Shown piece by piece: positions 473-37,174 of a DNA stretch of 37,174 bases. Position 1 is the stretch's first letter. Every line of letters starts with the position of its first letter. The position numbers and the translations under genes are program-made. The stretch is from the IMG/VR virus record IMGVR_UViG_2671181127_000013, positions 1 through 37,174 of that record. One strand, 5' to 3'. The notes under the pieces were generated by a model. That model was not told the origin of the DNA. It saw only the letters and a program-made list of their open reading frames with translations, and searched no databases. This DNA comes from a virus (taxonomy: Duplodnaviria; Heunggongvirae; Uroviricota; Caudoviricetes).

Positions 473-613
473 TTACTGTTTACACTGCAAGAACGCCGCA
501 AATTCTGACCACATGATGTTAAGTCTGAACTCACACGGCGAACGGTGTATCATCCAGATGGCCAACAACATGGTTAAGCATAAAATGCTCACGATGATCG
601 TTTTTTGCGGCAT
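473..613 (-). CDS. Hok/Gef-family type I toxin, 46 aa (copy B)
   Basis: My translation: MPQKTIIVSILCLTMLLAIWMIHRSPCEFRLNIMWSEFAAFLQCKQ; about 60 percent identical to copy A, same C-terminal EFAAFLQCKQ. Confidence 0.55.
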   Translation of the reverse strand: MPQKTIIVSILCLTMLLAIWMIHRSPCEFRLNIMWSEFAAFLQCKQ

Positions 614-24204: not shown

Positions 24205-24704
24205 GTCGCTCTCCTTTGGTCTGTTTATGCCAGCCTGTATTCTGCGCTCACCTCATATTGTGCGCAAGTTTTCACCCGTGAATGACTGATACTTTAAATT
24301 CTATTAACTTTATGATTTCAGTGATTTTTGTCTCTCTTTTTTATCCCGTTCGTCACGTCCGTTTCCCTCCCGATCTCCGACCTCGCCAGACGCAATCAGA
24401 CGCATTCTGACGGCCTGTTTCCCTGACCATGTTTTGATGTGGTTTTTCAAAACTGACTTTACTGCGTGCGTATCACGCGCCATACGACCCCAAATAAAGC
24501 AACCCGCCTTCCATCCCTCAATTCGGGCGCCCTTCCCTCGTCGCCTGCGCGCAGCGATCGCCTCGTTTTTCGTGCACCGTGCAAAGTGGCTTCAGCCAGC
24601 GCCGTTACTGGGCTGAAAGGGTAAAAAACACATAAGAAAAATTGTGCAATTTCGTGCACTTTTGTGCGGTTTTCCAGGTGGTGTTTATGCGGGAATCGCA
24701 GGCT

Positions 24705-24734
24705 AAAAAAAGCATGAGCGGGGATTGCCCCCGC
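24705..24734 (-). terminator. Rho-independent terminator of the two-gene module
   Basis: Minus-strand GCGGGG-loop-CCCCGC hairpin just after the stop at 24740, followed by a T7 run. Confidence 0.5.
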
Positions 24735-24739
24735 GATAT

Positions 24740-25117
24740 TCATGCCGCCCGATGAGCTTCACCTACTGACGGGTCTATTATGATTTCAAAATCCGTGAAC
24801 AACGCTTTCGGCTGTACGCAGTTACCTTGTTTTTCCAGGCTGACAAAGCCGTATCGACTCAGCATTTTTAACGTTGCTGACAAATTACTTAACTGCCTTC
24901 CTGAAAGACTGGCAAGTTCTGTCATTGTCTGCGGTTTTTCCGCATCCATGATACGCAGAAGCGCGATATTTTCGTTGCTCAGCGCCTGACCCAGAGCGTT
25001 CAGAGATGAAAACCAGACTCGCGGTTCGTCAGGTTCTGGTTTTAGTTTCCCTTTGGCTATATCCAGCATTCTCTGGCGAAGGACTTTCTCCGGGATAATG
25101 CCGATACGGGCTTTCAT
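24740..25117 (-). CDS. Winged-HTH DNA-binding protein (125 aa), second gene of two-gene module
   Basis: TMTELASLSGRQLSNLSATLKMLSRYGFVSL is a typical wHTH recognition segment; start overlaps upstream stop (ATGA). Confidence 0.6.
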   Translation of the reverse strand: MKARIGIIPEKVLRQRMLDIAKGKLKPEPDEPRVWFSSLNALGQALSNENIALLRIMDAEKPQTMTELASLSGRQLSNLSATLKMLSRYGFVSLEKQGNCVQPKALFTDFEIIIDPSVGEAHRAA

Positions 25118-25488
25118 TTCTTCCCCCTTTGCTGTTCAGCAATCACTCTGTCTACATGGTTAAAGAAATCCAGTAAAAGCTGTTCCGCAGAAGTGAATTC
25201 ATATGGATAGCCTTTATCGGACGATGTTCTGTGAATATGGTCATAAACGGTAATGCGCCCGGTAAATTTCCCTTTCTTTGGTGGCTTTATTCCGTGAGCG
25301 TTATCCATTCCAAAAACCCGGGAGTTATAAGGATCGTGCAATGTCAGGTTGTAGCGTATTCCATGTGGTCTGAACTGGCTTGGGCTAACCCTGTATGCTT
25401 CAATCTTCCACCAGTAACCATTATCCATGTGGTGCTGGTATCCATGCATATCCAGAAGGGTGTTCAGCCCATGATCATTGTTTTTCAT
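25114..25488 (-). CDS. Hypothetical His/Tyr/Trp-rich protein (124 aa), first gene of two-gene module
   Basis: Clean ORF translationally coupled to the wHTH gene; preceded by an AT-rich intergenic region; family not recognised. Confidence 0.55.
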   Translation of the reverse strand: MKNNDHGLNTLLDMHGYQHHMDNGYWWKIEAYRVSPSQFRPHGIRYNLTLHDPYNSRVFGMDNAHGIKPPKKGKFTGRITVYDHIHRTSSDKGYPYEFTSAEQLLLDFFNHVDRVIAEQQRGKK

Positions 25489-25671
25489 AACTGATTCGTA
25501 TCACCTTACTTATGACCAAATCATAACATCGTTTTTTTCTTTATCAAGGTGGGTTATTGTGCTGTTCTTGTGGTTATCGACGTTAACTTATGTACATATT
25601 TGAATTCGTAGTGGTTAATATGAAAAAAGTGTCTGACGAATTTGACGGCTTCTGAATACGTAAAACTGTGT

Positions 25672-25703
25672 CAGGCGGAGTATGTTTCTCCGCCTTTTTG
25701 TTT
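25672..25703. terminator. Hairpin plus T-run between the SSB-like gene and the two-gene module
   Basis: GGCGGAG-TATGTTT-CTCCGCC followed by TTTTTGTTT on the plus strand; orientation ambiguous. Confidence 0.4.
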
Positions 25704-25742
25704 GTGCCAGCCCGGCGTCTCACATCATTACTCACATATTGA

Positions 25743-26060
25743 TCATATTGCGGTTCTTGAGCTGATAATGCTTTGTGCCAGCAACTGCCAGCCTTCTTTC
25801 ATCTGTCCGTATTTGTCCTGATATCTGTTTACCTGCAAGTTCCCGTGCACCTGTACCAGGTCGCCTTTTTTGTGTTTTGCCAGTTCTTCGTGCTGCTTCC
25901 CGAATGCGATAAGGTAAAGCCACATTGTGGTTGACTGTTCTGCGCCATGGCCGGGCAGTGATATCGCCAGTCGTGCAGCTGTTACATCGGTGCCTCTGGA
26001 TGATTTTCTTGTCGTCGGGTCTTCCGCCAGTCGTCCCCGTGTTGCAATCTGCGTTGTCAT
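25743..26060 (-). CDS. SSB-like OB-fold protein (105 aa)
   Basis: Pattern L..DP..R......V...RLA.S.........W....AFGK.AE....KKGD.V.V.G.L....Y.DK.G parallels E. coli SSB OB-fold core; start at ATG 26060 with GGAGA SD. Confidence 0.5.
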   Translation of the reverse strand: MTTQIATRGRLAEDPTTRKSSRGTDVTAARLAISLPGHGAEQSTTMWLYLIAFGKQHEELAKHKKGDLVQVHGNLQVNRYQDKYGQMKEGWQLLAQSIISSRTAI

Positions 26061-26083
26061 ATTTGTCTCCGTTGGTGGTTTAG

Positions 26084-26431
26084 TTATTGGACTGATATGA
26101 CTGGCAGATCTCCGCCAGCGCCGTAGATAAACAGAATTCGCTTCATGACTTCGCTGCGCTTGCAGACTTCGATGACTGATTTTTCCTGTTGCCATTCAGC
26201 CCGTTGCGCCAGCTCCAGTCGTTCCTCTTCCGTTGGCTTCCGGTAATGCGTTATCTTGTCCGTGTACCCGTCCACAACCAGCAGGCCTTCCCGTACCATT
26301 TTTCCGGCGGCCTGATTGATGACGGTTCTTTTCACGCCCAGTTTTTCTACCAGTTCCGGTGCGCTGAAGCGTGCGTGCGTTTCCAGGTAGCGTAAAATGA
26401 TTTCCTTTCCGGTCATTCCTGGGGTCTTCAT
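26084..26431 (-). CDS. Putative winged-helix DNA-binding protein (115 aa)
   Basis: Start at ATG 26431 with AAGGAG SD; EIILRYLETHARFSAPELVEKLGVKRTVINQAAGKMVREGLL resembles a wHTH. Confidence 0.45.
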   Translation of the reverse strand: MKTPGMTGKEIILRYLETHARFSAPELVEKLGVKRTVINQAAGKMVREGLLVVDGYTDKITHYRKPTEEERLELAQRAEWQQEKSVIEVCKRSEVMKRILFIYGAGGDLPVISVQ

Positions 26432-26679
26432 TTGGTGGCTCCTTCGTTGTTCCGGCGCTCCCGGAGTTCGGTCAGTGCTGCCAGTAAATTTTCCCACCAT
26501 GTTTCTTCCACGACCGGATTTTGGCGTGAAAGCAGCTGTTGCGCCGACTCAATCATGCTGTTCAGGTCCCTGTCGCTGATCGCCCTGGTGCTGTTAATGG
26601 TGTGTTGCTGTCTGGTGCTCATGATGTCTGTGGTTCTCCTGTTACTTGCGGTGCTGCTTTCTGGCGGCTGAATGTACAT
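26428..26679 (-). CDS. Hypothetical protein (start uncertain; alternative ATG at 26622)
   Basis: ORF with ATGA overlap to the downstream gene. Confidence 0.35.
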   Translation of the reverse strand: MYIQPPESSTASNRRTTDIMSTRQQHTINSTRAISDRDLNSMIESAQQLLSRQNPVVEETWWENLLAALTELRERRNNEGATK

Positions 26680-27043
26680 AACTTGCTATGGCCGCCTTGC
26701 GGTTAATGCGCTTCATCGCCCTGGCTAAATCTTCGTTGTGTTTCCTGATATCCTTTTCGTGATATGCCTTCATGATCCTCCCGGCTGGCGTCAGTGGTTC
26801 TGGTGCTCCCGTGTTCCTCAGTCTCAGGGCTGCGATAAAGTCGCCGCTGTCTCCCCATGGTCTGGCGTTCAGGATGTCGGCAGTCATACTTTCGGTACTC
26901 CTGTCTGGACGGGCTATGGTGATTTCCAGCTGGTCACCTGGCTGCGGTCTTCTTATCAGTCCTCTCAGCGTCAGCGCCGGTAATCTCTTGGTCATGACGA
27001 CGCTGAACTCTCGTTGCTGAAGCGTGCAGTTGAATCGCGTCAT
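26642..27043 (-). CDS. Hypothetical protein (133 aa) downstream of A
   Basis: ORF overlapping the end of gene A by 4 nt. Confidence 0.4.
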   Translation of the reverse strand: MTRFNCTLQQREFSVVMTKRLPALTLRGLIRRPQPGDQLEITIARPDRSTESMTADILNARPWGDSGDFIAALRLRNTGAPEPLTPAGRIMKAYHEKDIRKHNEDLARAMKRINRKAAIASYVHSAARKQHRK

Positions 27044-29562
27044 TCATCCCCCTTCAGCTGTGCTACTTCCTTCAGGCTTCCGGTGCTTTCATCCCAGTGA
27101 ACAATCCGCCCGTCAGGCAGGCGAACGCGCGCCCCGCGATACACGGAAAGCGCCGCACTACTGTGTAACTCCTCGCCCGTTGTACTCAGAGTACTGGCGA
27201 TCAACCTGGTGGTCATATCCGGTTTTGCGAGTGCCGCACCGGCATATACCACGCCTTCAGGTGCGGGGAACCCGCCGCTGTTTGCGGTTTTTGTGGATTT
27301 CTGGTCATTTTTCAGCTGTTGGGTGAGCTGTTTTCTCTGTACTGGAGTCAGTGACCTTAACCACTCACCCGGATCACCTTCCGGTACGATTAGTTTTTGT
27401 TCTTTCCTCCCTTCCGGTGGTGGTGTTTTGTCCGTTTCGTTGTTTGTTTTTTCATCATGGCGACAGTTATTGCCACGAGTCCAAGGTGCGGCGAAGCCGC
27501 CCCCAACGTCAAAATCCTCGTCCGTGCTGTTGTCGGCTTTCGCTTCTTTTCTGACCAGTTTCCACTCGTCCGGATGGGTGCAGATGGTGTAGCGCTCGCC
27601 GAGCGACGGGGCACAAATTCCGTAGATGCGCTGCGGGAATTCGCCGTAGTCGTTGGCCTCATCTGCGGTTTCGTATGCGGTGCGGATCAGGTACAGGTTG
27701 CGTGGAATGAGCACGCCGCCCTGACGGTTGATGTAGGTGGCAAAACACCCCACGTCAGCGGCGGCCAGAATGGCGTCAATGTCGTCATGGTCCAGGCGCT
27801 TCGGTGATGCGGGGTTACGCTCCATTTGTCCGGCAAGGCGGCGGAGTTCACGCCATACCTGGCGGGGCGGGATACCGAAGAACTGGAACTGCCGGATGCG
27901 GTGGAGACTCGCCCAGGCAATGGCGTTTTCCACGGTTTCCGCCATGGTTTTTCCCGATTCTTTATCGGCGTAAGGTTTGCCGGTTTTCGGGTCATTGTCG
28001 TGAAAGGTGCTGGCGTCCAGGTTCTTGCCAATATAGGTTGCGATGTAGCTTGCCGGTGTGCCTTTTGCCGGGTCGATTTTTTCGCACTTGAAGCGCGGAG
28101 AAATATCATTCCCCAGTTCTGCGCGATCTGATTTGATTGCTGCGTCACGCATGATTTCAATGATGCGTTCTTCATTGTCCGGGGCGGTGAATACCAGCAT
28201 GTGCCAGTGCGGTGTGCCGTCATGGTGTGGCTCAACGGTGCGCACCCCGTACCAGCTCAGGCCTTCTTTGTTGAGTTTTTTTCTTGCAGCTGCAAAGACG
28301 TCGTAAACCAGATAATCACTGGCATCGCGCACGGTGGCACCGTTGTATTTCGGGTTCAGGCTGCCGTCCTCGTTTACGCTGTGAAAGCGGGAAGGGCAGG
28401 TCACTGTCACGAAGAACGCGGAGTCACCACGCGATTCGGCGACCTGTTCCATCCCTCTGACGCAGGCCATCATCTCGTTGCGGCGGTTGCGCGGATTCCC
28501 CAGCCCTGACCAGTACACGTCCTCCAGGCTCAGGCGTTCACCGTCTTCGTTTTCAATGTCCCAGCTTTTGAGAAAATCACGGGTGCGCTGGCGTTTCTCC
28601 CGGAATTCCTGGAGTGACTCATGGCTGATGTAGGGGGATGCCTTGCGCGATACTCTTCCGGCGGCACGCAGTAATTCCTCCCGCCAGAGATCAGCGAGGT
28701 GGCGCAGCTGGTTGTTCCACCAGGTGGCGCAGGTGATACGCATTACCGCGCCCGGTACCAGTTCAGGGTCTGGTGCCGTGCGGCGGTCACGTCTGATCTC
28801 GAGTGACGGCCAGTATGGTGGGTTCACGCCCAGTTTTATTGCCATGCGCGCCAGCTGCTGGTAAGTCAGCAACCAGGTAAACAGGTTATCGTCGCCTTTT
28901 CCTGTCCGCTCAGTAACTTCATCACATATGCGTTCCAGTTCGGTGGAAAATGCCGCCGCCGTTAGTGTGGCAAGGCGCTGAATTTGATCACGGTTGAGTT
29001 GTGGCAGCATGAGTAATTCATCAAGGCGATGACGCGCTGCGGTGGCTTTGAATGCCGTCGTGGCGAAGCATTCATTCACCTGTTCGATGCGTTTCAGGCG
29101 TGTGCGCAGTCCACGGCGAACGAAGTTATCGGCCACGTGAGTGTTGTTGTTTTTCACGCCTTCATTGCGGGCGCTTTGTTGTTTGCGGTTTAAACGCGCC
29201 AGATCACGAATGAGCACGTTGCCAAGAAACGAGGGCAGGGTGCGAAGTTCTGCCATGGCTTCCGATACCAGCGTTGGCGGATTTTCTCGTTTGTGTCTCG
29301 CCAGTTTTTCCAGTCTGATCCGGCGCTCTTCGTCGTGGTGAAGATGCGAATTAATTCGCTTGCCTTCGTCTGTGTTTGTCAGGAAGGAGACGGTTTCTTC
29401 ATCCAGTCTGGCATCAATGCGAATGTCTTCGTTGATGTAGCTCTGAATGGCCTGGCGTAATGCGGTTGGTTGCGCTCTGCCGAACGTTTCAGGATCGATA
29501 ACCGGTAGCGGGGCGTTCCACGGGTACGCCAGTTGTGCGTTATGGTCGCTCATGCGTCGCAC
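27040..29562 (-). CDS. A: Replication initiation protein A (rolling-circle nickase)
   Basis: 840 aa with GTPHWHMLVF (HxH metal-binding motif of gpA-type initiators). Confidence 0.9.
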   Translation of the reverse strand: MRRMSDHNAQLAYPWNAPLPVIDPETFGRAQPTALRQAIQSYINEDIRIDARLDEETVSFLTNTDEGKRINSHLHHDEERRIRLEKLARHKRENPPTLVSEAMAELRTLPSFLGNVLIRDLARLNRKQQSARNEGVKNNNTHVADNFVRRGLRTRLKRIEQVNECFATTAFKATAARHRLDELLMLPQLNRDQIQRLATLTAAAFSTELERICDEVTERTGKGDDNLFTWLLTYQQLARMAIKLGVNPPYWPSLEIRRDRRTAPDPELVPGAVMRITCATWWNNQLRHLADLWREELLRAAGRVSRKASPYISHESLQEFREKRQRTRDFLKSWDIENEDGERLSLEDVYWSGLGNPRNRRNEMMACVRGMEQVAESRGDSAFFVTVTCPSRFHSVNEDGSLNPKYNGATVRDASDYLVYDVFAAARKKLNKEGLSWYGVRTVEPHHDGTPHWHMLVFTAPDNEERIIEIMRDAAIKSDRAELGNDISPRFKCEKIDPAKGTPASYIATYIGKNLDASTFHDNDPKTGKPYADKESGKTMAETVENAIAWASLHRIRQFQFFGIPPRQVWRELRRLAGQMERNPASPKRLDHDDIDAILAAADVGCFATYINRQGGVLIPRNLYLIRTAYETADEANDYGEFPQRIYGICAPSLGERYTICTHPDEWKLVRKEAKADNSTDEDFDVGGGFAAPWTRGNNCRHDEKTNNETDKTPPPEGRKEQKLIVPEGDPGEWLRSLTPVQRKQLTQQLKNDQKSTKTANSGGFPAPEGVVYAGAALAKPDMTTRLIASTLSTTGEELHSSAALSVYRGARVRLPDGRIVHWDESTGSLKEVAQLKGDE

Positions 29563-29966
29563 TCCCCGGCAGTTGCCACCTGAAACGCCGCGCGGTACAG
29601 CACGAGAAGGCGCTGATATTCACCGATAAAGTCTTCTGCGGTGTATATGCCTTTCACGGCCACGCTGTGGGTTGTCATTTCCAGAACCAGCGCCATCTCT
29701 GATGACGACCAGCTGATGGTGGTGCTGTCGGTGCCGTTGATGTGAAATAAACCCAGTCCATCACCATCACCTTTCACGTCCACGCGGTAACGACCGTCAA
29801 CGGTGAAGGAGAAATCCCCGGATGTGGTGATGCTGCGGGCAGCCTGTTTACAGGCGCGGCGGTAATAGTCGTGCCAGTCGTTCAGGCGGGAAGCCAGCCG
29901 GGGATCCACTGCCCACATCCAGTTAAAAAAATCCTGAATATCTGAAAGTCCCTTAACGCTCTTCAT
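29550..29966 (-). CDS. Hypothetical protein (138 aa) upstream of A
   Basis: ORF overlapping the A start. Confidence 0.45.
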   Translation of the reverse strand: MKSVKGLSDIQDFFNWMWAVDPRLASRLNDWHDYYRRACKQAARSITTSGDFSFTVDGRYRVDVKGDGDGLGLFHINGTDSTTISWSSSEMALVLEMTTHSVAVKGIYTAEDFIGEYQRLLVLYRAAFQVATAGECDA

Positions 29967-30034
29967 GAGAACCTCCGGTAACAGATGTGCGGAAGCCTCC
30001 CGCGTACGGGTGCGGGATGGCTTCAGGATGTTGT

Positions 30035-30262
30035 TTAGTGGTGGTGTTGCTGGTTGATAAGGTCCTGCAGCTCCGCGAGATCATCCGCCAGGTAGCTGAA
30101 AACAGCGGCACAGTAACGGTTTGACAGAGCGTGAGTGCGCTCATGCAGCATATTGATGTGCATGATTTGCGCGACGCGTGAGGCGCGGAAAAGTCTGCGG
30201 TTGATTTCAGTGCGGATGTGAAGACGCTCAGCGCGGGCGCGCTGTTGCTTGCGGTTTGCCAT
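30035..30262 (-). CDS. Hypothetical basic protein (75 aa)
   Basis: ORF; Arg-rich N-terminus, His-rich C-terminus. Confidence 0.35.
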   Translation of the reverse strand: MANRKQQRARAERLHIRTEINRRLFRASRVAQIMHINMLHERTHALSNRYCAAVFSYLADDLAELQDLINQQHHH

Positions 30263-30441
30263 GGTGTGGCCTCTTTGCTAGTAAGTTCTGAAAACTCACC
30301 ATCCAGAGCTGCGAAACTGTGGGTGGCGAGACGTACGAGGTTCGCAGTACCGGCTAGCAAAGAACCCGGCCCGACCGAAGTCGGCCCCGTACGCCCCGCC
30401 ATTATTCTGACGCGAAAAAGACGTGGCGATACAGTACGCAC

Positions 30442-30462
30442 AAAAAAACCGCTGGCGCGGTT
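30442..30462 (-). terminator. Putative rho-independent terminator separating early-left genes from the replication module
   Basis: Minus-strand ACCGC-GCCA-GCGGT hairpin followed by T7. Confidence 0.4.
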
Positions 30463-30645
30463 GTGCGCTTTGCTAGTCGGCGGGCTGCGAAACCCGGCAC
30501 CCGTTTTATGAGATGCGGGAAAACTGTAACCCGACCAGACGAGCGCTGGCAAGCGGTTTTTGTGTTGCGTGCTGATGTGGTTAGAATGTGGCGAATTAAT
30601 ATCACCTGGCAACTGGTGATTGTCTGCATACGCGGGGTGTTTCTG

Positions 30646-31110
30646 ATGAGTGATAAGCTCCCTTCTGATTACGACATTCTTTTTGACCTGTGGTACAGCT
30701 ACTGGCTTGAACGTATTACATGTGTGTTTCACCGACGCGTTTCTGCTGCTCTGCGAATCAGCGCCTTTCTGGTTGGTGTTGCGGCGTTTGTCCTGTGTGA
30801 TTTTGTTGTGTTGGTACTCTTCAGTGTGGTTCTGTTTCTGCTCTGGCAGTGCATGGCTGCCAGTTTTGAACGCAGGGCTGAAAAGGCTGAATGGCAGACA
30901 GTCAGTTACCAGCGCCTTATCAGTCAGCGCCATGTGATTAGTAAGGAATGCATGATTGCGCGCCTCTCCTTTGTTGAGGAAAGTGACAGTCCCATCATGG
31001 AGTGCATGATTAATCTTGCCTGGAATAAAGCCTGTGAGGCGGTTGGCAGCTCTTCGCGCAATCATGTTTCGATCTCCGGTCGGTTACTCAGTCGCCTGTG
31101 CGGCTTTTGA
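30646..31110 (+). CDS. Putative membrane protein (about 154 aa) encoded opposite to the early operon
   Basis: ATG at 30646; 30-residue hydrophobic stretch ISAFLVGVAAFVLCDFVVLVLFSVVLFLLW; possible TTGTGT-16 bp-TAGAAT promoter upstream. Confidence 0.35.
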   Translation: MSDKLPSDYDILFDLWYSYWLERITCVFHRRVSAALRISAFLVGVAAFVLCDFVVLVLFSVVLFLLWQCMAASFERRAEKAEWQTVSYQRLISQRHVISKECMIARLSFVEESDSPIMECMINLAWNKACEAVGSSSRNHVSISGRLLSRLCGF

Positions 31111-31434
31111 TTTGCCAAACAGCTGTGCGACAGTTTCGCCGGCCGCCCGATTTTCCGGGAATGACACCGGCATGTTCAGCTTGAGTGCCATTGCGTACTC
31201 AGCCCGTGCGCCAGCGGACTCTTCCCATCCATCCAGTAAGTAAATGGCATCGGCACACATGAGCATCGGAATACAAATGCTCATGTACTGCTGCTGGCTT
31301 AATCCGTCAGGCAGCACGGCAGGATTAAGAACGATGTTTCCGGCGCACCGAAGTTTCAGGTCCTCCACGCAAAATGCCGTCCTGTTGTGGTCTTTGCATC
31401 CGGTCATGGGACCGGCGATATAAATCACTGCCAT
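31084..31434 (-). CDS. DUF4406-family protein (nucleoside 2-deoxyribosyltransferase-like fold)
   Basis: N-terminal VIYIAGPMTG motif typical of DUF4406. Confidence 0.5.
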   Translation of the reverse strand: MAVIYIAGPMTGCKDHNRTAFCVEDLKLRCAGNIVLNPAVLPDGLSQQQYMSICIPMLMCADAIYLLDGWEESAGARAEYAMALKLNMPVSFPENRAAGETVAQLFGKSKAAQATE

Positions 31435-31911: not shown

Positions 31912-32892
31912 TCACGTACTGGCAGGGGTAAACATCACGCTGTAAGTTGCATCTCCCGTCACAGGTCCGCAGTCCGGGCAGTAGCCACCGCCATAGTGAC
32001 CGCAGGCGTTGCACTGTCTCAGGGTGGCGATAACTTCCGGTGCTGGTTCGCGGGTTCTTGCTCCAACGCTTCGTGGTGCCTGTATGCAGTTCATCCGGTA
32101 ACCCCGATAAATGCGTCTGGTTTCCGGTGTGTCGGAATTGGAGATGGTGATTCTGGTCATGCCGCCCGTTTCCTGCGAAAGGCGGTCAAGTGCTGCCCTC
32201 AGGCGAACGTGCTCGTGTTCATCGAATGGTTTTCCGTAGGCGGTGAAATTGCCCTCGCCACTGAACCGCAGGTAAGGGGGATCGCAGTACACGCAAAGCG
32301 TGTTGCCCATGCCGAACAGGTGACTGGCAGAGCTCAGCGTATCCTTAAAATCTGCGTGGATAAGCAGCGTTTGGGTGCTGTTTGCCTTGTCTGCAAATGC
32401 GCGGATTTCCCGCTCAGGGAAGTAGGGTTTTCGGTAGCCGCCGAAAGGCACGTTAAAATCACCTTTTCCGTTCACCCGGTACAGGCCATTAAAACAGTGC
32501 CGGTTGAGGTACAAAAACATGGCGGCCAGTCGCAGTTCACGGCGGTCGCTTATTCCCGTTCTGCTACTCAGGAAGGCATGATTCTCTGCGTTAAAGGTTT
32601 CGCGAATGATGAGATAGTCACCCCTGTTGTTGTGGTTCAGGAACAGGGTTTTCGCCTCGTCGATCAGACTGTCGGTGTTGTCCCGTGCTGCCCGCCAGAA
32701 ATTAATCAGCGCACCATTGGAATCACCCAGGATGTAACGCTTGTAACTGGTGTTCATGAATACCGATGCGCCACCCACGAACGGTTCAACCAGGCAGTCA
32801 GCTTCTGGCAGATGCGCCTTCAGTGTGTTCATGATGCGGCTTTTGCCACCCACCCATTTCAGCGGTGTGCCGGATAACAGTTCTTTGCTCAT
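31912..32892 (-). CDS. DNA adenine N6-methyltransferase (Dam/D12 class) with C-terminal Cys-rich extension
   Basis: LKWVGGK N-terminal motif and DPPY catalytic motif; C-terminal CNACGHYGGGYCPDCG. Confidence 0.85.
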   Translation of the reverse strand: MSKELLSGTPLKWVGGKSRIMNTLKAHLPEADCLVEPFVGGASVFMNTSYKRYILGDSNGALINFWRAARDNTDSLIDEAKTLFLNHNNRGDYLIIRETFNAENHAFLSSRTGISDRRELRLAAMFLYLNRHCFNGLYRVNGKGDFNVPFGGYRKPYFPEREIRAFADKANSTQTLLIHADFKDTLSSASHLFGMGNTLCVYCDPPYLRFSGEGNFTAYGKPFDEHEHVRLRAALDRLSQETGGMTRITISNSDTPETRRIYRGYRMNCIQAPRSVGARTREPAPEVIATLRQCNACGHYGGGYCPDCGPVTGDATYSVMFTPAST

Positions 32893-33116
32893 AACGCGGC
32901 CTCTTTGTTATAGGTTTCGTGCGTTAATAAATCCCATGACTTCCCGTTGTTTTTGCTCAGTAATCGCCAGCGAAAACCGATTCTTATTACCAGGTAGTCG
33001 TGGGGTTTTATACGTGAAAAATTCCGCACGCCGTCGCGGAATAAACGCAGCGATGCGCGGGCTTTTCTTTCCACGTTCAGGGGGGGGCAGCAACACACAT
33101 TCAGGATGGCGGCCAT
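32889..33116 (-). CDS. Hypothetical protein (75 aa)
   Basis: ORF coupled to the downstream methyltransferase. Confidence 0.35.
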   Translation of the reverse strand: MAAILNVCCCPPLNVERKARASLRLFRDGVRNFSRIKPHDYLVIRIGFRWRLLSKNNGKSWDLLTHETYNKEAAL

Positions 33117-33125
33117 GGCTTCACC

Positions 33126-33716
33126 TCATATGTTCAGGAATGGTGTTGTGAAGCGCTGCCAGATTTCTGACACGACCTTTGCCTGGTAAACGGCGTCGCC
33201 CAGCGCGGTGTGAGCAATGGTCTCTTTGCCTGATCGGCCTGGCATTCTCCAGCCGGTTGATTCAGCCATGGCGATAAGCGGACGCATACAGCGCTCGTCC
33301 CAGTAGCACCAGGGGATGCTTTTTTCTCCGGCTGTGCGTGTTATGGCGGATTTCAGGATTGGGAAATCGAAGGATGCGCCTTTGCACCATATGGTCAGTG
33401 AATTGCCCGGGCTTTCGTCATGCATATTGCGTGAAATGAACGCCAGAAATTCGGTCACTGCTGCCAGCTCTGTTCCATCTGCGTTGCGCAGGCAGGCTCT
33501 GGCTTCCACGGATTGTCCGGCCCACCATACAGCGGTGGCTGCATTGACGGTTCCGCCGTTGCGTTCTGAATCCACCGGGTCGATGAATTTCTCAAACTGC
33601 TTGCCCAGCTTTCCGGTGAACGGGTCGAAAAACACCGCCCCAATCGCGAATATGGCTGCGTCCGGTCCGTTACCCAGTGTTTCGGTGTCAATCATGAGAT
33701 GGTTCATTATGCGCAC
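33126..33716 (-). CDS. DEDDh-family 3'-5' exonuclease (DnaQ-like)
   Basis: Exo I motif MIDTETLG and Exo III motif HTALGDAVYQ. Confidence 0.75.
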   Translation of the reverse strand: MRIMNHLMIDTETLGNGPDAAIFAIGAVFFDPFTGKLGKQFEKFIDPVDSERNGGTVNAATAVWWAGQSVEARACLRNADGTELAAVTEFLAFISRNMHDESPGNSLTIWCKGASFDFPILKSAITRTAGEKSIPWCYWDERCMRPLIAMAESTGWRMPGRSGKETIAHTALGDAVYQAKVVSEIWQRFTTPFLNI

Positions 33717-34895: not shown

Positions 34896-35090
34896 TTACA
34901 GTGATTCGTCTCTTGTCAGCCTAAAAATCACTTCAGCCATGACTTCGCTAATTACATCGATCCCCTGATCGGTAAGGGCTTCTTTCCAGGCCTTGCTTGC
35001 ACGTGTTGGATCCATCCTGCCTGATTGCTGTTGTATGATGATGAAGCGTAAATCGCTGTATAAGTCTTTTGTTTGAGTGGAGTCAGTCAT
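34896..35090 (-). CDS. Hypothetical protein (64 aa)
   Basis: ORF in the early operon. Confidence 0.4.
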   Translation of the reverse strand: MTDSTQTKDLYSDLRFIIIQQQSGRMDPTRASKAWKEALTDQGIDVISEVMAEVIFRLTRDESL

Positions 35091-36112: not shown

Positions 36113-36181
36113 CGCTGTACATCGAGCGGGTTTCATCCCGTAGAGAGTGTACGGCTGATTCATCCGTTGGAGGGGCTAATC

Positions 36182-37174
36182 ATGTCGATTAAGCAACTCA
36201 AAGACGGGCGTTATAAGGTTGATGTAAGACCGCAAGGGACGGAAGGAAAGCGGATCCGTAAGATTTTTACCCTGAAGTCAAAGGCACAGGAGTTTGAAAG
36301 GTATGTTTTGCAGAATTTCCACGATAAACCGTGGCAGGCCAAGCCAGCTGATCAGCGTCGGTTATCCGAACTGATAGATGCCTGGTGGGTGCTTGATGGC
36401 CGGAATCAGCCTTACGGGGATACTTACAGGGTCAGGCTGGAAAAAATAAACCGTGAGATGAGGGACCCCCGCGCCAGTGAGATGACGCGAAAGTTTATGC
36501 TCGGGTATCGTTCAGATAAATTACAGGCCGGATTAATGCCCTCCAGTGTTAATCGTGATTTGTGTGCCTTGTCTGCAATGTTTACCTCGCTGATTGATGC
36601 GGATGTTTTCCATAACGAAAACCCGGTGCGTGGAATACGTAAGCTCAAGGTCAGGAATACAGAAATGGCCTTTCTTTCAGATGATGAGATTGATCGGCTG
36701 CTTGAACGACTCGAGGGGGATGCGCGTCGCGTTGCTGTTCTGTGTCTTTCCACTGGCGCAAGGTGGGGGGAAGCAGCTGGCTTACGTGGTGAGCATATCG
36801 TTGGTAACCGCGTAATGTTCTTTAACACAAAGAATGGAAAATCCCGCGCGGTTCCTGTTTCTGATACGGTGCTTTCGTTGATAAAAACCCGAAAAACCGG
36901 GCTATTGTACCAGGCTGATTACATCCGTTTTCGGGATATCCTTCAGGAGGTGAAACCGGATTTACCCAAAGGTCAGGCGACTCACGTTATGCGTCACACG
37001 TTCGCCACGCATTTCATGATGAACGGCGGAAATATCGTTACGTTACAGCGAATCCTTGGGCACGCCACGATTCAACAAACGATGACGTATGCGCATTTTT
37101 CACCGGACTTTTTACAGGATGCGATTAGCTTTAATCCGCTGGCTGATAGTGTCCATAAACTGTCCATTGACTAG
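36182..37174 (+). CDS. int: Tyrosine integrase (P2 Int family)
   Basis: 330 aa with R...HxxR...Y catalytic-domain features (LSTGARWGEAAGLRGEHI, HVMRHTFATHF, TMTYAH); ATG 36182 with GGAGGGG SD; stop is the last codon of the window. Confidence 0.9.
   Translation: MSIKQLKDGRYKVDVRPQGTEGKRIRKIFTLKSKAQEFERYVLQNFHDKPWQAKPADQRRLSELIDAWWVLDGRNQPYGDTYRVRLEKINREMRDPRASEMTRKFMLGYRSDKLQAGLMPSSVNRDLCALSAMFTSLIDADVFHNENPVRGIRKLKVRNTEMAFLSDDEIDRLLERLEGDARRVAVLCLSTGARWGEAAGLRGEHIVGNRVMFFNTKNGKSRAVPVSDTVLSLIKTRKTGLLYQADYIRFRDILQEVKPDLPKGQATHVMRHTFATHFMMNGGNIVTLQRILGHATIQQTMTYAHFSPDFLQDAISFNPLADSVHKLSID

Follow-up and report, generated by a model that had tools for sequence, protein, structure and literature searches.

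The locus studied here raises the question of why a P2-like phage should bring its own adenine methylase into E. coli, a host that methylates GATC with its own Dam, and what the short cysteine-rich tail of that methylase might be for. The window (the whole stretch of DNA that was analysed, 37,174 nucleotides) is a complete P2-like (Peduoviridae) prophage with P2-type late genes (Ogr, D, sheath, tube, portal, terminase and a P2-family capsid), and dam lies in its early operon. In agreement with the first-pass annotation, which had placed the gene there, dam is found at 31.9-32.9 kb between the repressor/integrase switch region (35.1-36.2 kb; integrase and HTH repressor at 35.8-37.2 kb) and the replication endonuclease gene A, all of them on the minus strand. 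The same 981-bp coding sequence is annotated as 'DNA adenine methylase' by PGAP in a 99.9% identical E. coli prophage, and dam adjoins dmsA in the PGAP annotation. The main genes of the locus are:

33126..33716, minus strand: Rv2179c-like DEDDh 3′-5′ exonuclease, upstream of dam (PF16473, E 2.4e-50)
32889..33116, minus strand: ParE_like 75-aa ORF, upstream of dam (PF24732, E 3.7e-18)
31912..32892, minus strand: dam, a 326-aa ORF (from the ORF list; ATG start, stop codon at 31912-31914)
27040-29562, minus strand: replication endonuclease gene A

The TGA stop codon of the ParE_like ORF overlaps the ATG of dam (as ATGA) and a GAGG lies 8-11 nt 5′ of the dam start, implying that the two are translationally coupled neighbours. 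A ParE_like homologue (59% identical) occupies the same position in Klebsiella phage ST16-OXA48phi5.4, where the order exonuclease, small ORF, dam, gene A is also found. This synteny, starting from cox, is conserved across Klebsiella and Enterobacter Peduoviridae, and in this Dam clade the Rv2179c-like exonuclease is a conserved neighbour of dam. According to a family scan of the six flanking ORFs, the remaining neighbours of dam are a DUF4406 ORF and two small ORFs without a family.

The methyltransferase itself is readily recognised, and both its initial description as a Dam-type adenine methyltransferase and the LKWVGGK and DPPY motifs on which that description was based hold up well. Its features are:

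32023..32868, minus strand: methyltransferase domain, residues 9-290 (PF02086, TIGR00571 and the alignment with E. coli Dam, 2g1p)
32842..32862, minus strand: LKWVGGK, residues 11-17 (K12 aligns with K9 of E. coli Dam)
32764..32787, minus strand: EPFVGGAS, residues 36-43, AdoMet-binding motif I (FxGxG), aligned to EPFVGAGS of E. coli Dam
32434..32493, minus strand: GATC-reading loop FNGLYRVNGKGDFNVPFGGY, residues 134-153 (from the E. coli Dam alignment)
32272..32283, minus strand: DPPY, catalytic motif IV, residues 204-207 (from the sequence; invariant in 47 homologues)

PF02086 matches residues 13-266 with an E-value of 7e-53 (180 bits against a cutoff of 22), the Dam model TIGR00571 gives 228 bits (cutoff 115), and residues 8-267 of E. 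coli Dam (EcoDam, PDB 2G1P) align with residues 11-290 of the phage protein at E 3e-51. The motif order is that of the D12 class, alpha-type, with the FxGxG motif followed by the target-recognition region and then by DPPY. Across the 47 homologues, E36, F38 and G40 of motif I are invariant, as are N135 and R139 of the recognition loop, and P37, V39 and P149 are nearly so. In EcoDam, GATC is read by seven residues: K9, whose contact is with the first base pair, Y119, N120, L122, R124, P134 and Y138 (PMC4417163). The last six align with F134, N135, L137, R139, P149 and Y153 of the phage enzyme, so that six of the seven are identical and the seventh, the Y119 to F134 replacement, is aromatic too. 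From this alignment we strongly infer that the target is the N6 of the GATC adenine. The score against the chromosomal Dam equivalog model NF008152 (217 bits) falls below its 441-bit cutoff, however, and by this measure the phage enzyme is a member of the Dam family rather than an orthologue of the housekeeping chromosomal Dam. Thus it resembles EcoDam in fold family, in motif order, in the FxGxG and DPPY motifs and in the residues that match K9, N120, L122, R124, P134 and Y138, whereas it differs in being phage-borne within an early operon, in the replacement of Y119 by F and of R137 by G, in a 13-residue insertion at ~103-120 and in a 36-residue C-terminal extension.

As the first-pass annotation had claimed, this methylase is an orphan: no restriction endonuclease adjoins dam among the six flanking ORFs, the PGAP annotation of the near-identical prophage includes no R-M type nuclease, and PADLOC found no defence partner, its best model for the methylase being 'orphan methyltransferase' (oMTase, 252 bits). 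The function first proposed for it, self-methylation for anti-restriction or for control of replication or packaging, is plausible by analogy with other phage Dams, but it is weakened by the host's own methylation of GATC and by the finding that GATC is neither avoided in the prophage (150 sites observed vs 187 expected, a ratio of 0.80) nor clustered at an obvious control site. In the early region just one pair of GATC sites is closely spaced, at 34959 and 34967 within a small ORF; given this and the ratio of 0.80 we dropped the GATC pattern as a regulatory or packaging clue. The methylase as such is nothing new: solitary Dams turn up frequently among P2-like phages and in many others, and the existing annotation already identifies this one.

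Only the tail takes this locus out of the ordinary, and what it suggests is recruitment or docking rather than a role in catalysis. The homology to Dam stops at residue ~290, and the last ~36 residues are therefore an extension, most of which is taken up by one small module:

31930..32013, minus strand: C-terminal mini-module CNACGHYGGGYCPDCGPVTGDATYSVMF, residues 294-321 (profile searches, alignments)

The module opens with two CxxCG knuckles (C294, C297, C305 and C308) contained in CNACGHYGGGYCPDCG (residues 294-309), which is indeed the 'C-terminal Cys-rich tail' of the original description, and continues into a VxGDATYxxMF peptide; its consensus is CxxCG-x6-CPDCG-[PA]VMGDATYxxMF. That description also held the tail to lie beyond a minimal Dam fold, and the end of the homology at ~290 agrees with this, but the tail is more than dispensable, being a conserved mobile module that is shared with RecE. 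It is present in 115 of the 120 best homologues (those with the tail come from prophages of Klebsiella, Enterobacter, Citrobacter and Raoultella), and its retention at an overall identity of only ~50% argues that it is under selection. The four cysteines are invariant in the 47 full-length Dam homologues, and, together with P306 and Y317, across 34 sequences that include Dam, RecE-like and small-protein carriers. Identity within the tail is 38-71%, at or above that of the whole protein. Klebsiella-type tails often end in YGAMA, with the final F changed to A, and the 'MF' ending is thus not universal. No second copy of the module was found anywhere in the window, and a literature search with the motif strings CPDCG, GDATY and VMGDATY found no description of it, only unrelated papers.

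Many phage Dams do without this module. Those that we compared (SopEPhi, SEN8, Cartapus, Klebsiella Kp4876-1, the C-terminal half of P1 Dmt and the Dams of jumbo Salmonella phages) are likewise solitary and are 35-47% identical to the present enzyme over residues ~1-290, and the P2-like ones also lie in the early region. Unlike the present enzyme, they end at ~290 and lack the Cys-rich module, and this includes the P2-like SopEPhi, SEN8, Cartapus and Kp4876-1. In some P2-like phages with a tail-less Dam (H89, H90), the neighbouring gene encodes a separate TraR/DksA-type zinc-finger protein.

Outside the Dam family, the module is found in a mixed set of proteins. Searching 1.84e9 representative proteins with a module profile yielded ~40 single-copy carriers. 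The module also occurs in RecE (exonuclease VIII) of the Rac prophage, which in K-12 carries the counterpart of CNACGHYGGGYCPDCGPVTGDATYSVMF at residues 517-544 and in Rac-SA53 at 541-568. Here the module is internal, with flexible acidic linkers on both sides; it belongs to the N-terminal region, which has no known function, and lies immediately ahead of the nuclease domain (564-866). Apart from the module, the phage Dam and RecE, a PDDEXK 5′-3′ exonuclease, have nothing in common. The similarity (55-68%) is at the protein level. The RecE model PRK09709 picks up the tail with an E-value of 1.6e-5, aligning residues 290-322 to positions 524-556 of its 877, and the RecE-type model phrog_20376 matches it at E 1.1e-8. 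The PRK09709 score is 23 bits vs a cutoff of 1269, and a Pfam scan of the phage Dam matched neither PF06630 nor PF12684. Judged by these scores, the phage Dam shares a module with RecE but is no member of the RecE family. Three proteins with a RecE-type N-terminus (P0137, P0139 and P0147) combine the module with an Rv2179c-like DEDDh exonuclease instead of the PDDEXK nuclease.

The module also forms the C-terminus of ~10 groups of small phage proteins, which for the most part have unrelated N-terminal parts; four of these carriers match PHROGs 6680, 10472, 21008 or 27803. The small-protein carriers are encoded in phage early regions, beside RdgC/Dam/RecT or an MT-A70 methylase. The module borders on linkers, either acidic or of low complexity, or on the C-terminus of the protein, and there are variant carriers with either four Cys or Cys plus His in which the spacing of the first pair differs. 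The strongest profile matches were giant proteins with 6-18 matched stretches, but these correspond only to the 'VTGDATYTAVF' half and were rejected as homologues, since each stretch is short and the proteins are of a different class; the ones tested are surface proteins, two of them with Listeria-Bacteroides/InlB-type repeats (PF09479, PF18998). We also rejected a source of the shared sequence at the DNA or RNA level: megablast with the 2.4-kb locus matched just 31 records, and no recE feature occurs among the 15 of these that were listed.

The cysteine pattern, together with sub-threshold matches to zinc ribbons, makes it likely that the module binds zinc. When the tail alone was scanned against Pfam, NCBIfam and PHROGs, no family of its own emerged, only the RecE-type models and sub-threshold zinc ribbons; in Pfam, where no family reaches threshold, the best zinc-ribbon scores were 12-17 bits vs cutoffs of 24-29. 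The module shares its two CxxCG knuckles with generic C4 ribbons (DZR PF12773, Zn_ribbon_3 PF13248, TFIIB PF08271 and rubredoxin; weak E-values of 0.01-0.1), and its second knuckle is of the CPxCG type seen in rubredoxin-like sites, but none of these families reaches its gathering score or contains the VMGDATYxxMF continuation, and the knuckles of the module, unlike those of the generic ribbons, are just 7 residues apart. A comparison of the module profile with all PDB sequences gave nothing significant; the best match, a 68-aa 'conserved protein' (9qtr_i, E 0.012), has the same knuckle spacing. By these comparisons the module belongs to no described family and is a C4 knuckle by pattern.

AlphaFold2 produced low-confidence models both for the full protein (47-sequence alignment, mean pLDDT 54.7) and for the module alone (34 sequences, mean pLDDT 56.7). 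A short helix predicted over ATYSVM(F), at residues 315-321 in the full model and 315-320 in the module model, amounts to no more than a hint, and the resulting picture of a knuckle plus a helix is correspondingly weak. The endings YQEMF and YSVMF were also considered as clamp-binding (QxxLF-like) motifs, a reading that was rejected because their spacing does not fit and the tails from Klebsiella finish with YGAMA.

The explanation that we favour, though by a slender preponderance, is that this protein is a solitary GATC-specific Dam equipped with a zinc-knuckle docking tag. The Dam domain would transfer the methyl group of AdoMet to the N6 of the GATC adenine, and, being expressed from the early operon together with the DEDDh exonuclease and the rolling-circle initiator gpA, it would likely maintain full methylation of the GATC sites in fast-replicating phage DNA when host Dam is in short supply. 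The ~28-residue module fused to the end of the Dam fold would play no part in catalysis or sequence recognition. Its two CxxCG knuckles, most likely binding one zinc ion, would instead present the invariant peptide CPDCG-[PA]V-x-GDATY-x-x-MF, weakly predicted to end in a short helix, and so serve as a portable docking tag that tethers its carrier to one common partner. That partner might be a protein of the enterobacterial and Aeromonas hosts or else a hub for DNA replication or repair. We infer this docking role with moderate confidence from the distribution of the module, which is inserted into RecE and appended to many unrelated small early phage proteins.

A different role for a zinc-binding tail, which we consider unlikely but which survives best among the alternatives, is that of a nucleic-acid-binding ribbon that would give the methylase, and RecE too, additional DNA affinity, either non-specific or structure-specific (for example for ssDNA, forks or ends), and so more processivity on replicating phage DNA. 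C4 zinc ribbons often do bind nucleic acids, the weak matches are to ribbons of the TFIIB, DZR and rubredoxin types, and every carrier with a recognisable enzyme domain (Dam, PDDEXK nuclease, DEDDh exonuclease) acts on DNA; there is also a basic residue before the first Cys in 29 of the 34 module sequences and an R past the first knuckle in the Dam tails. The core of the module, however, is acidic, with a mean net charge of -1.9, and in the stretch that links the second knuckle to MF conserved basic residues are absent. Its best-conserved half, CPDCG-VMGDATY-MF, has a pair of conserved Asp but lacks any conserved Lys or Arg, and in the RecE versions the core is entirely devoid of basic residues. 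Many carriers, moreover, are small proteins without known DNA function. In the case of RecE, the N-terminal part in question is without known function, and the nuclease domain without the module suffices for the basic reaction, the full-length protein differing only in linear-linear recombination (PMC11611040). The acidic core, the sufficiency of the module-less RecE nuclease domain and the placement of the module next to low-complexity or acidic linkers or at a C-terminus all lead us to prefer docking over DNA binding.

The tail could also be regulatory, either a zinc- or redox-sensitive switch or a degradation/turnover signal that limits the persistence of an early enzyme, although this strikes us as improbable. 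A cysteine-rich character would suit a switch, C-terminal peptides are common protease tags, the module is C-terminal in most carriers, and those carriers are early, transiently needed proteins; in RecE, however, it is internal, ~320 residues from the C-terminus, and thus ill suited to be a terminal degron. We give rather less credence to the idea that the enzyme is the methylase half of an R-M or defence system, with its nuclease located elsewhere or unrecognised and the tail serving assembly with that partner. The PADLOC type II MTase models score nearly as high as the orphan model (240 vs 252 bits), the ParE_like ORF upstream, which has a toxin fold, is translationally coupled to dam, and two downstream ORFs have no family. 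Nevertheless, the flanking genes encode no REase, PD-(D/E)xK or HNH nuclease, the DEDDh exonuclease being the sole nuclease family among them; the genes are arranged as in the early replication operon of P2, an order kept in several Peduoviridae; RecE and small proteins encoded in quite different surroundings carry the tail as well; and GATC is protected anyway by host Dam. Finally, phage genomes are mosaic, the module is found in otherwise unrelated genes and tail-less Dams work in many phages, but that the tail is a functionless leftover of recombination between a P2-like dam and a recE-type gene seems very improbable, given its retention by 115 of 120 homologues from several genera at ~50% overall identity, its invariant cysteines and tyrosine, a tail identity (38-71%) no lower than that of the whole protein, and the lack of megablast-level DNA similarity to recE among the 31 records matched by the 2.4-kb query, which implies that the conservation of the module is maintained at the protein level.

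The docking tag can be extended, quite tentatively, to a general phage 'address tag' that recruits diverse early proteins (Dam, RecE with either type of nuclease and ~10 unrelated groups of small proteins) to one host hub, such as a replisome or repair component, in Dam-clade gamma-proteobacteria. We consider this broader proposal possible rather than probable.

The tail is the potentially important part of this locus: it is tiny and strongly conserved, and it recurs in a methylase, in two kinds of recombination exonuclease and in orphan early proteins, a range of carriers that suggests that they interact with a shared target in the host cell. In RecE, a workhorse of recombineering, the first ~560 residues are without known function, and the module is a small, mutable element that makes this region experimentally approachable. 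If the address-tag reading is true, it would provide the first functional handle on the RecE N-terminal region, which is required for efficient linear-linear recombination, and it would single out a group of small phage proteins with a common site of action in the host. By analogy, a targeting tag on a phage Dam would parallel, in bacterial viruses, the replication-fork targeting of maintenance methylases.

The Cys-rich tail of the methylase (residues 294-321), judged by sequence, is a conserved and previously undescribed mini-module common to RecE and other early phage proteins. The core annotation of the enzyme that carries it, as an orphan Dam encoded in an early operon, is correct and ordinary. 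Every motif cited in the first-pass annotation was located in the translated ORF.

The dam gene and its motifs
31912-32892, minus strand: dam ORF, ATG start, 326 residues encoded
Residues 11-17, minus strand: LKWVGGK
Residues 204-207 (window 32272-32283), minus strand: DPPY
Residues 294-309, minus strand: CNACGHYGGGYCPDCG

The dam start codon and the stop codon of the preceding ORF share bases (ATGA), with GAGG 8-11 nt upstream of the start. An E. coli prophage with 99.9% identity has the same 981-bp CDS, which PGAP labels "DNA adenine methylase"; of 5426 complete E. coli genomes, 31 carry the locus. Residues 9-290 are assigned to the Dam-family, D12-class N6-adenine DNA methyltransferases, as the earlier "Dam-type" label had it, by concordant matches to Pfam PF02086 (E 7e-53), TIGR00571 (Dam family; 228 bits, cutoff 115) and the E. 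coli Dam (EcoDam) structure 2G1P (E 3e-51, residues 11-290). The chromosomal Dam equivalog model NF008152 stayed below threshold (217 bits, cutoff 441); by these models, the product belongs to the Dam family yet is distinct from the housekeeping orthologue. In EcoDam, K9 and Y138 are described as reading the first base pair of GATC and R124 the fourth-position guanine, with L122, P134, N120 and the intercalating Y119 also listed among the GATC readers (PMC4417163). These align with K12, Y153, R139, L137, P149, N135 and F134, respectively; with six identical and one conservatively changed (Y119 to F134), the alignment leads us to expect GATC as the target.

The prophage is complete, P2-like (Peduoviridae) and adjoins dmsA; dam lies on its early strand, with the repressor switch to one side and replication gene A to the other.

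Prophage landmarks and neighbours of dam
1-1050: two hok/gef genes and ogr, one end of the prophage
Between ogr and the early region: P2-type tail, lysis, capsid, terminase and portal genes
27040-29562, early strand: replication gene A
31084-31434: DUF4406, neighbour of dam
32889-33116, minus strand: 75-aa ParE_like ORF (PF24732, E 3.7e-18), directly upstream of dam
33126-33716, minus strand: Rv2179c-like DEDDh 3'-5' exonuclease, two genes upstream of dam
Also neighbouring dam: two small ORFs without family
36167-37174: integrase, after the early region, other end of the prophage

The genes run exonuclease, small ORF, dam, gene A in Klebsiella phage ST16-OXA48phi5.4 as well; in Enterobacter phage phiT5282H a small ORF and dam are followed by a 59-aa ORF and, in the place of gene A, by an unannotated ORF of 790 aa. 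A family scan of the neighbours found no restriction nuclease, and PADLOC found no defence partner, its best model being "orphan methyltransferase". Neighbour families, PADLOC and the recurring gene order thus bear out both "orphan", with no adjacent restriction endonuclease, and "early operon". Alignment to an annotated E. coli prophage that is nearly identical places the hok/gef toxin genes at 1-141 and 473-613 (minus strand, beside ogr) and a 2-kb DUF6645 gene at ~13769-15814 (minus strand, among late lysis and tail genes); they have the look of cargo, not of core P2 genes. The closest E. coli prophage gives no alignment over positions 24667-25751, and its identity is ~88-91% over 25751-30630, a stretch that includes gene A and the 29.9-31.1 kb region, versus 98-99% elsewhere; this suggests mosaic replacement in the early region. 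At 29.9-31.1 kb, long ORFs occupy both strands and the annotated genes are all small.

The tail does lie beyond a minimal Dam fold, as first proposed: Dam homology ends at residue ~290, where many phage Dams, including those of P2-like SopEPhi, SEN8, Cartapus and Kp4876-1, terminate. Of the 120 best database homologues, 115 (mostly from Klebsiella, Enterobacter, Citrobacter and Raoultella, only ~50% identical overall) keep the pattern CxxC-x7-CxxC followed by G-x-V-x-G-x-x-T-Y; across 47 full-length sequences the four cysteines (C294, C297, C305, C308) never vary, and Y317 hardly does.

The NCBIfam RecE model matches residues 290-322, a PHROG exonuclease family also matches the tail, and by tblastn the tail aligns within exodeoxyribonuclease VIII genes of Rac-like phages. 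The module spans residues 517-544 of E. coli K-12 RecE (DNA record L012), between Gln/Pro/Glu-rich linkers and directly N-terminal of the nuclease domain. According to a recent review, no function is known for the N-terminal domain of RecE, and the full-length protein can be replaced by its nuclease domain (564-866), while linear-linear recombination goes better with full-length RecE (PMC11611040). Because the module is immediately N-terminal of the nuclease domain, RecE truncated to that domain lacks it. The Rac gene ydaE, a neighbour of recE, encodes an annotated zinc-binding protein with a different Cys pattern.

A 34-position profile built from the Dam tails, searched against 1.84 billion representative proteins, gave 63 matches at E <= 1e-3, about 40 of them single-copy and full-length.

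Carriers of the module
Group 1: Dam proteins
Group 2: RecE N-terminal scaffold, then PDDEXK nuclease
Group 3: RecE N-terminal scaffold, then Rv2179c-like DEDDh exonuclease (proteins P0137, P0139, P0147)
Group 4: small proteins of 79-335 aa, about ten groups

The group 3 exonuclease belongs to the family of the 33126-33716 gene; the module lies between scaffold and exonuclease, as in Escherichia albertii WP_420703649.1. The small proteins usually end with the module, and their N-terminal parts are mostly unrelated between groups, four of which match PHROGs 6680, 10472, 21008 and 27803 (unknown function). A variant class, mostly from Aeromonas, has C-x6-C-x-G as first knuckle and retains CPDCG-[PA]VMGDATYxxMF. 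All three small-protein genes placed in genomes lie among phage-type genes: one adjoins RdgC, a PF05869 Dam and RecT, another overlaps the end of an MT-A70 methylase gene, and the neighbours of the third are all unannotated. In a lambdoid-type prophage (DNA record L005, 8537-9541, plus strand), the gene after small carrier P0128 codes for a protein of 334 aa that has CxxCxGxG/CPDCGG-type cysteine motifs of its own (CSRCKGHG ... CPDCGGRG) and a weak DnaJ_CXXCXGXG match, a zinc motif different from the module.

We rejected other high-scoring matches, giant proteins such as P0121-P0124, P0131 and P0148, as homologues: their repeated units match only the VTGDATYTAVF half, many times over (VTGDATYxAxF, often preceded by GW-x-P), and all that were tested proved to be surface proteins. 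Of four scanned, two carry Listeria-Bacteroides/InlB-type repeats (PF09479, PF18998) and dockerin domains; two do not. The resemblance of the repeats to G[YW]CPDCGPVTGDATY is striking and probably reflects chance or convergence. We found no Pfam family for the module, no solved structure matching it and, searching by motif strings, no description in the literature.

The two CxxCG knuckles, the second a rubredoxin-like CPxCG, and the four invariant cysteines argue that the module likely binds one structural zinc ion. Several observations favour a small, self-standing unit that makes contact with another protein over one that binds DNA or takes part in catalysis. The core is acidic (mean net charge -1.9); in the half with the highest conservation, two Asp positions are conserved and no basic one is; flexible linkers or the end of the chain separate the module from its surroundings; and its carriers include enzymes of different chemistries and many proteins without an enzyme domain. 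Both AlphaFold models place a short helix over ATYSVM(F), with low confidence. A DNA-binding ribbon is possible; all identifiable carriers act on DNA, although the module's charge speaks against such a ribbon; the tail may also serve as a stability or redox switch. The sole support for a hidden restriction-modification or toxin partnership is the ParE_like ORF coupled to dam. The stop of that ORF, whose product has a ParE-like toxin domain, overlaps the dam start; no obvious antitoxin gene adjoins it, and a 59% identical homologue holds the same position in ST16-OXA48phi5.4 and is absent there in phiT5282H. That the tail is a recombination leftover is contradicted by its conservation.

The best reading is that the module is a portable docking tag that would take its carrier to a common putative partner, while the methylase part would maintain full GATC methylation of phage DNA as it replicates. 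The anti-restriction, replication or packaging roles first suggested for dam are possible. The host already has a Dam, and the GATC sites of the prophage show no telling pattern, with 150 present versus 187 expected and no intergenic clusters in the early region. What is added to existing annotation is the Cys-rich tail, not the orphan Dam; the interest of the module is modest for now and would grow if a common partner is found.
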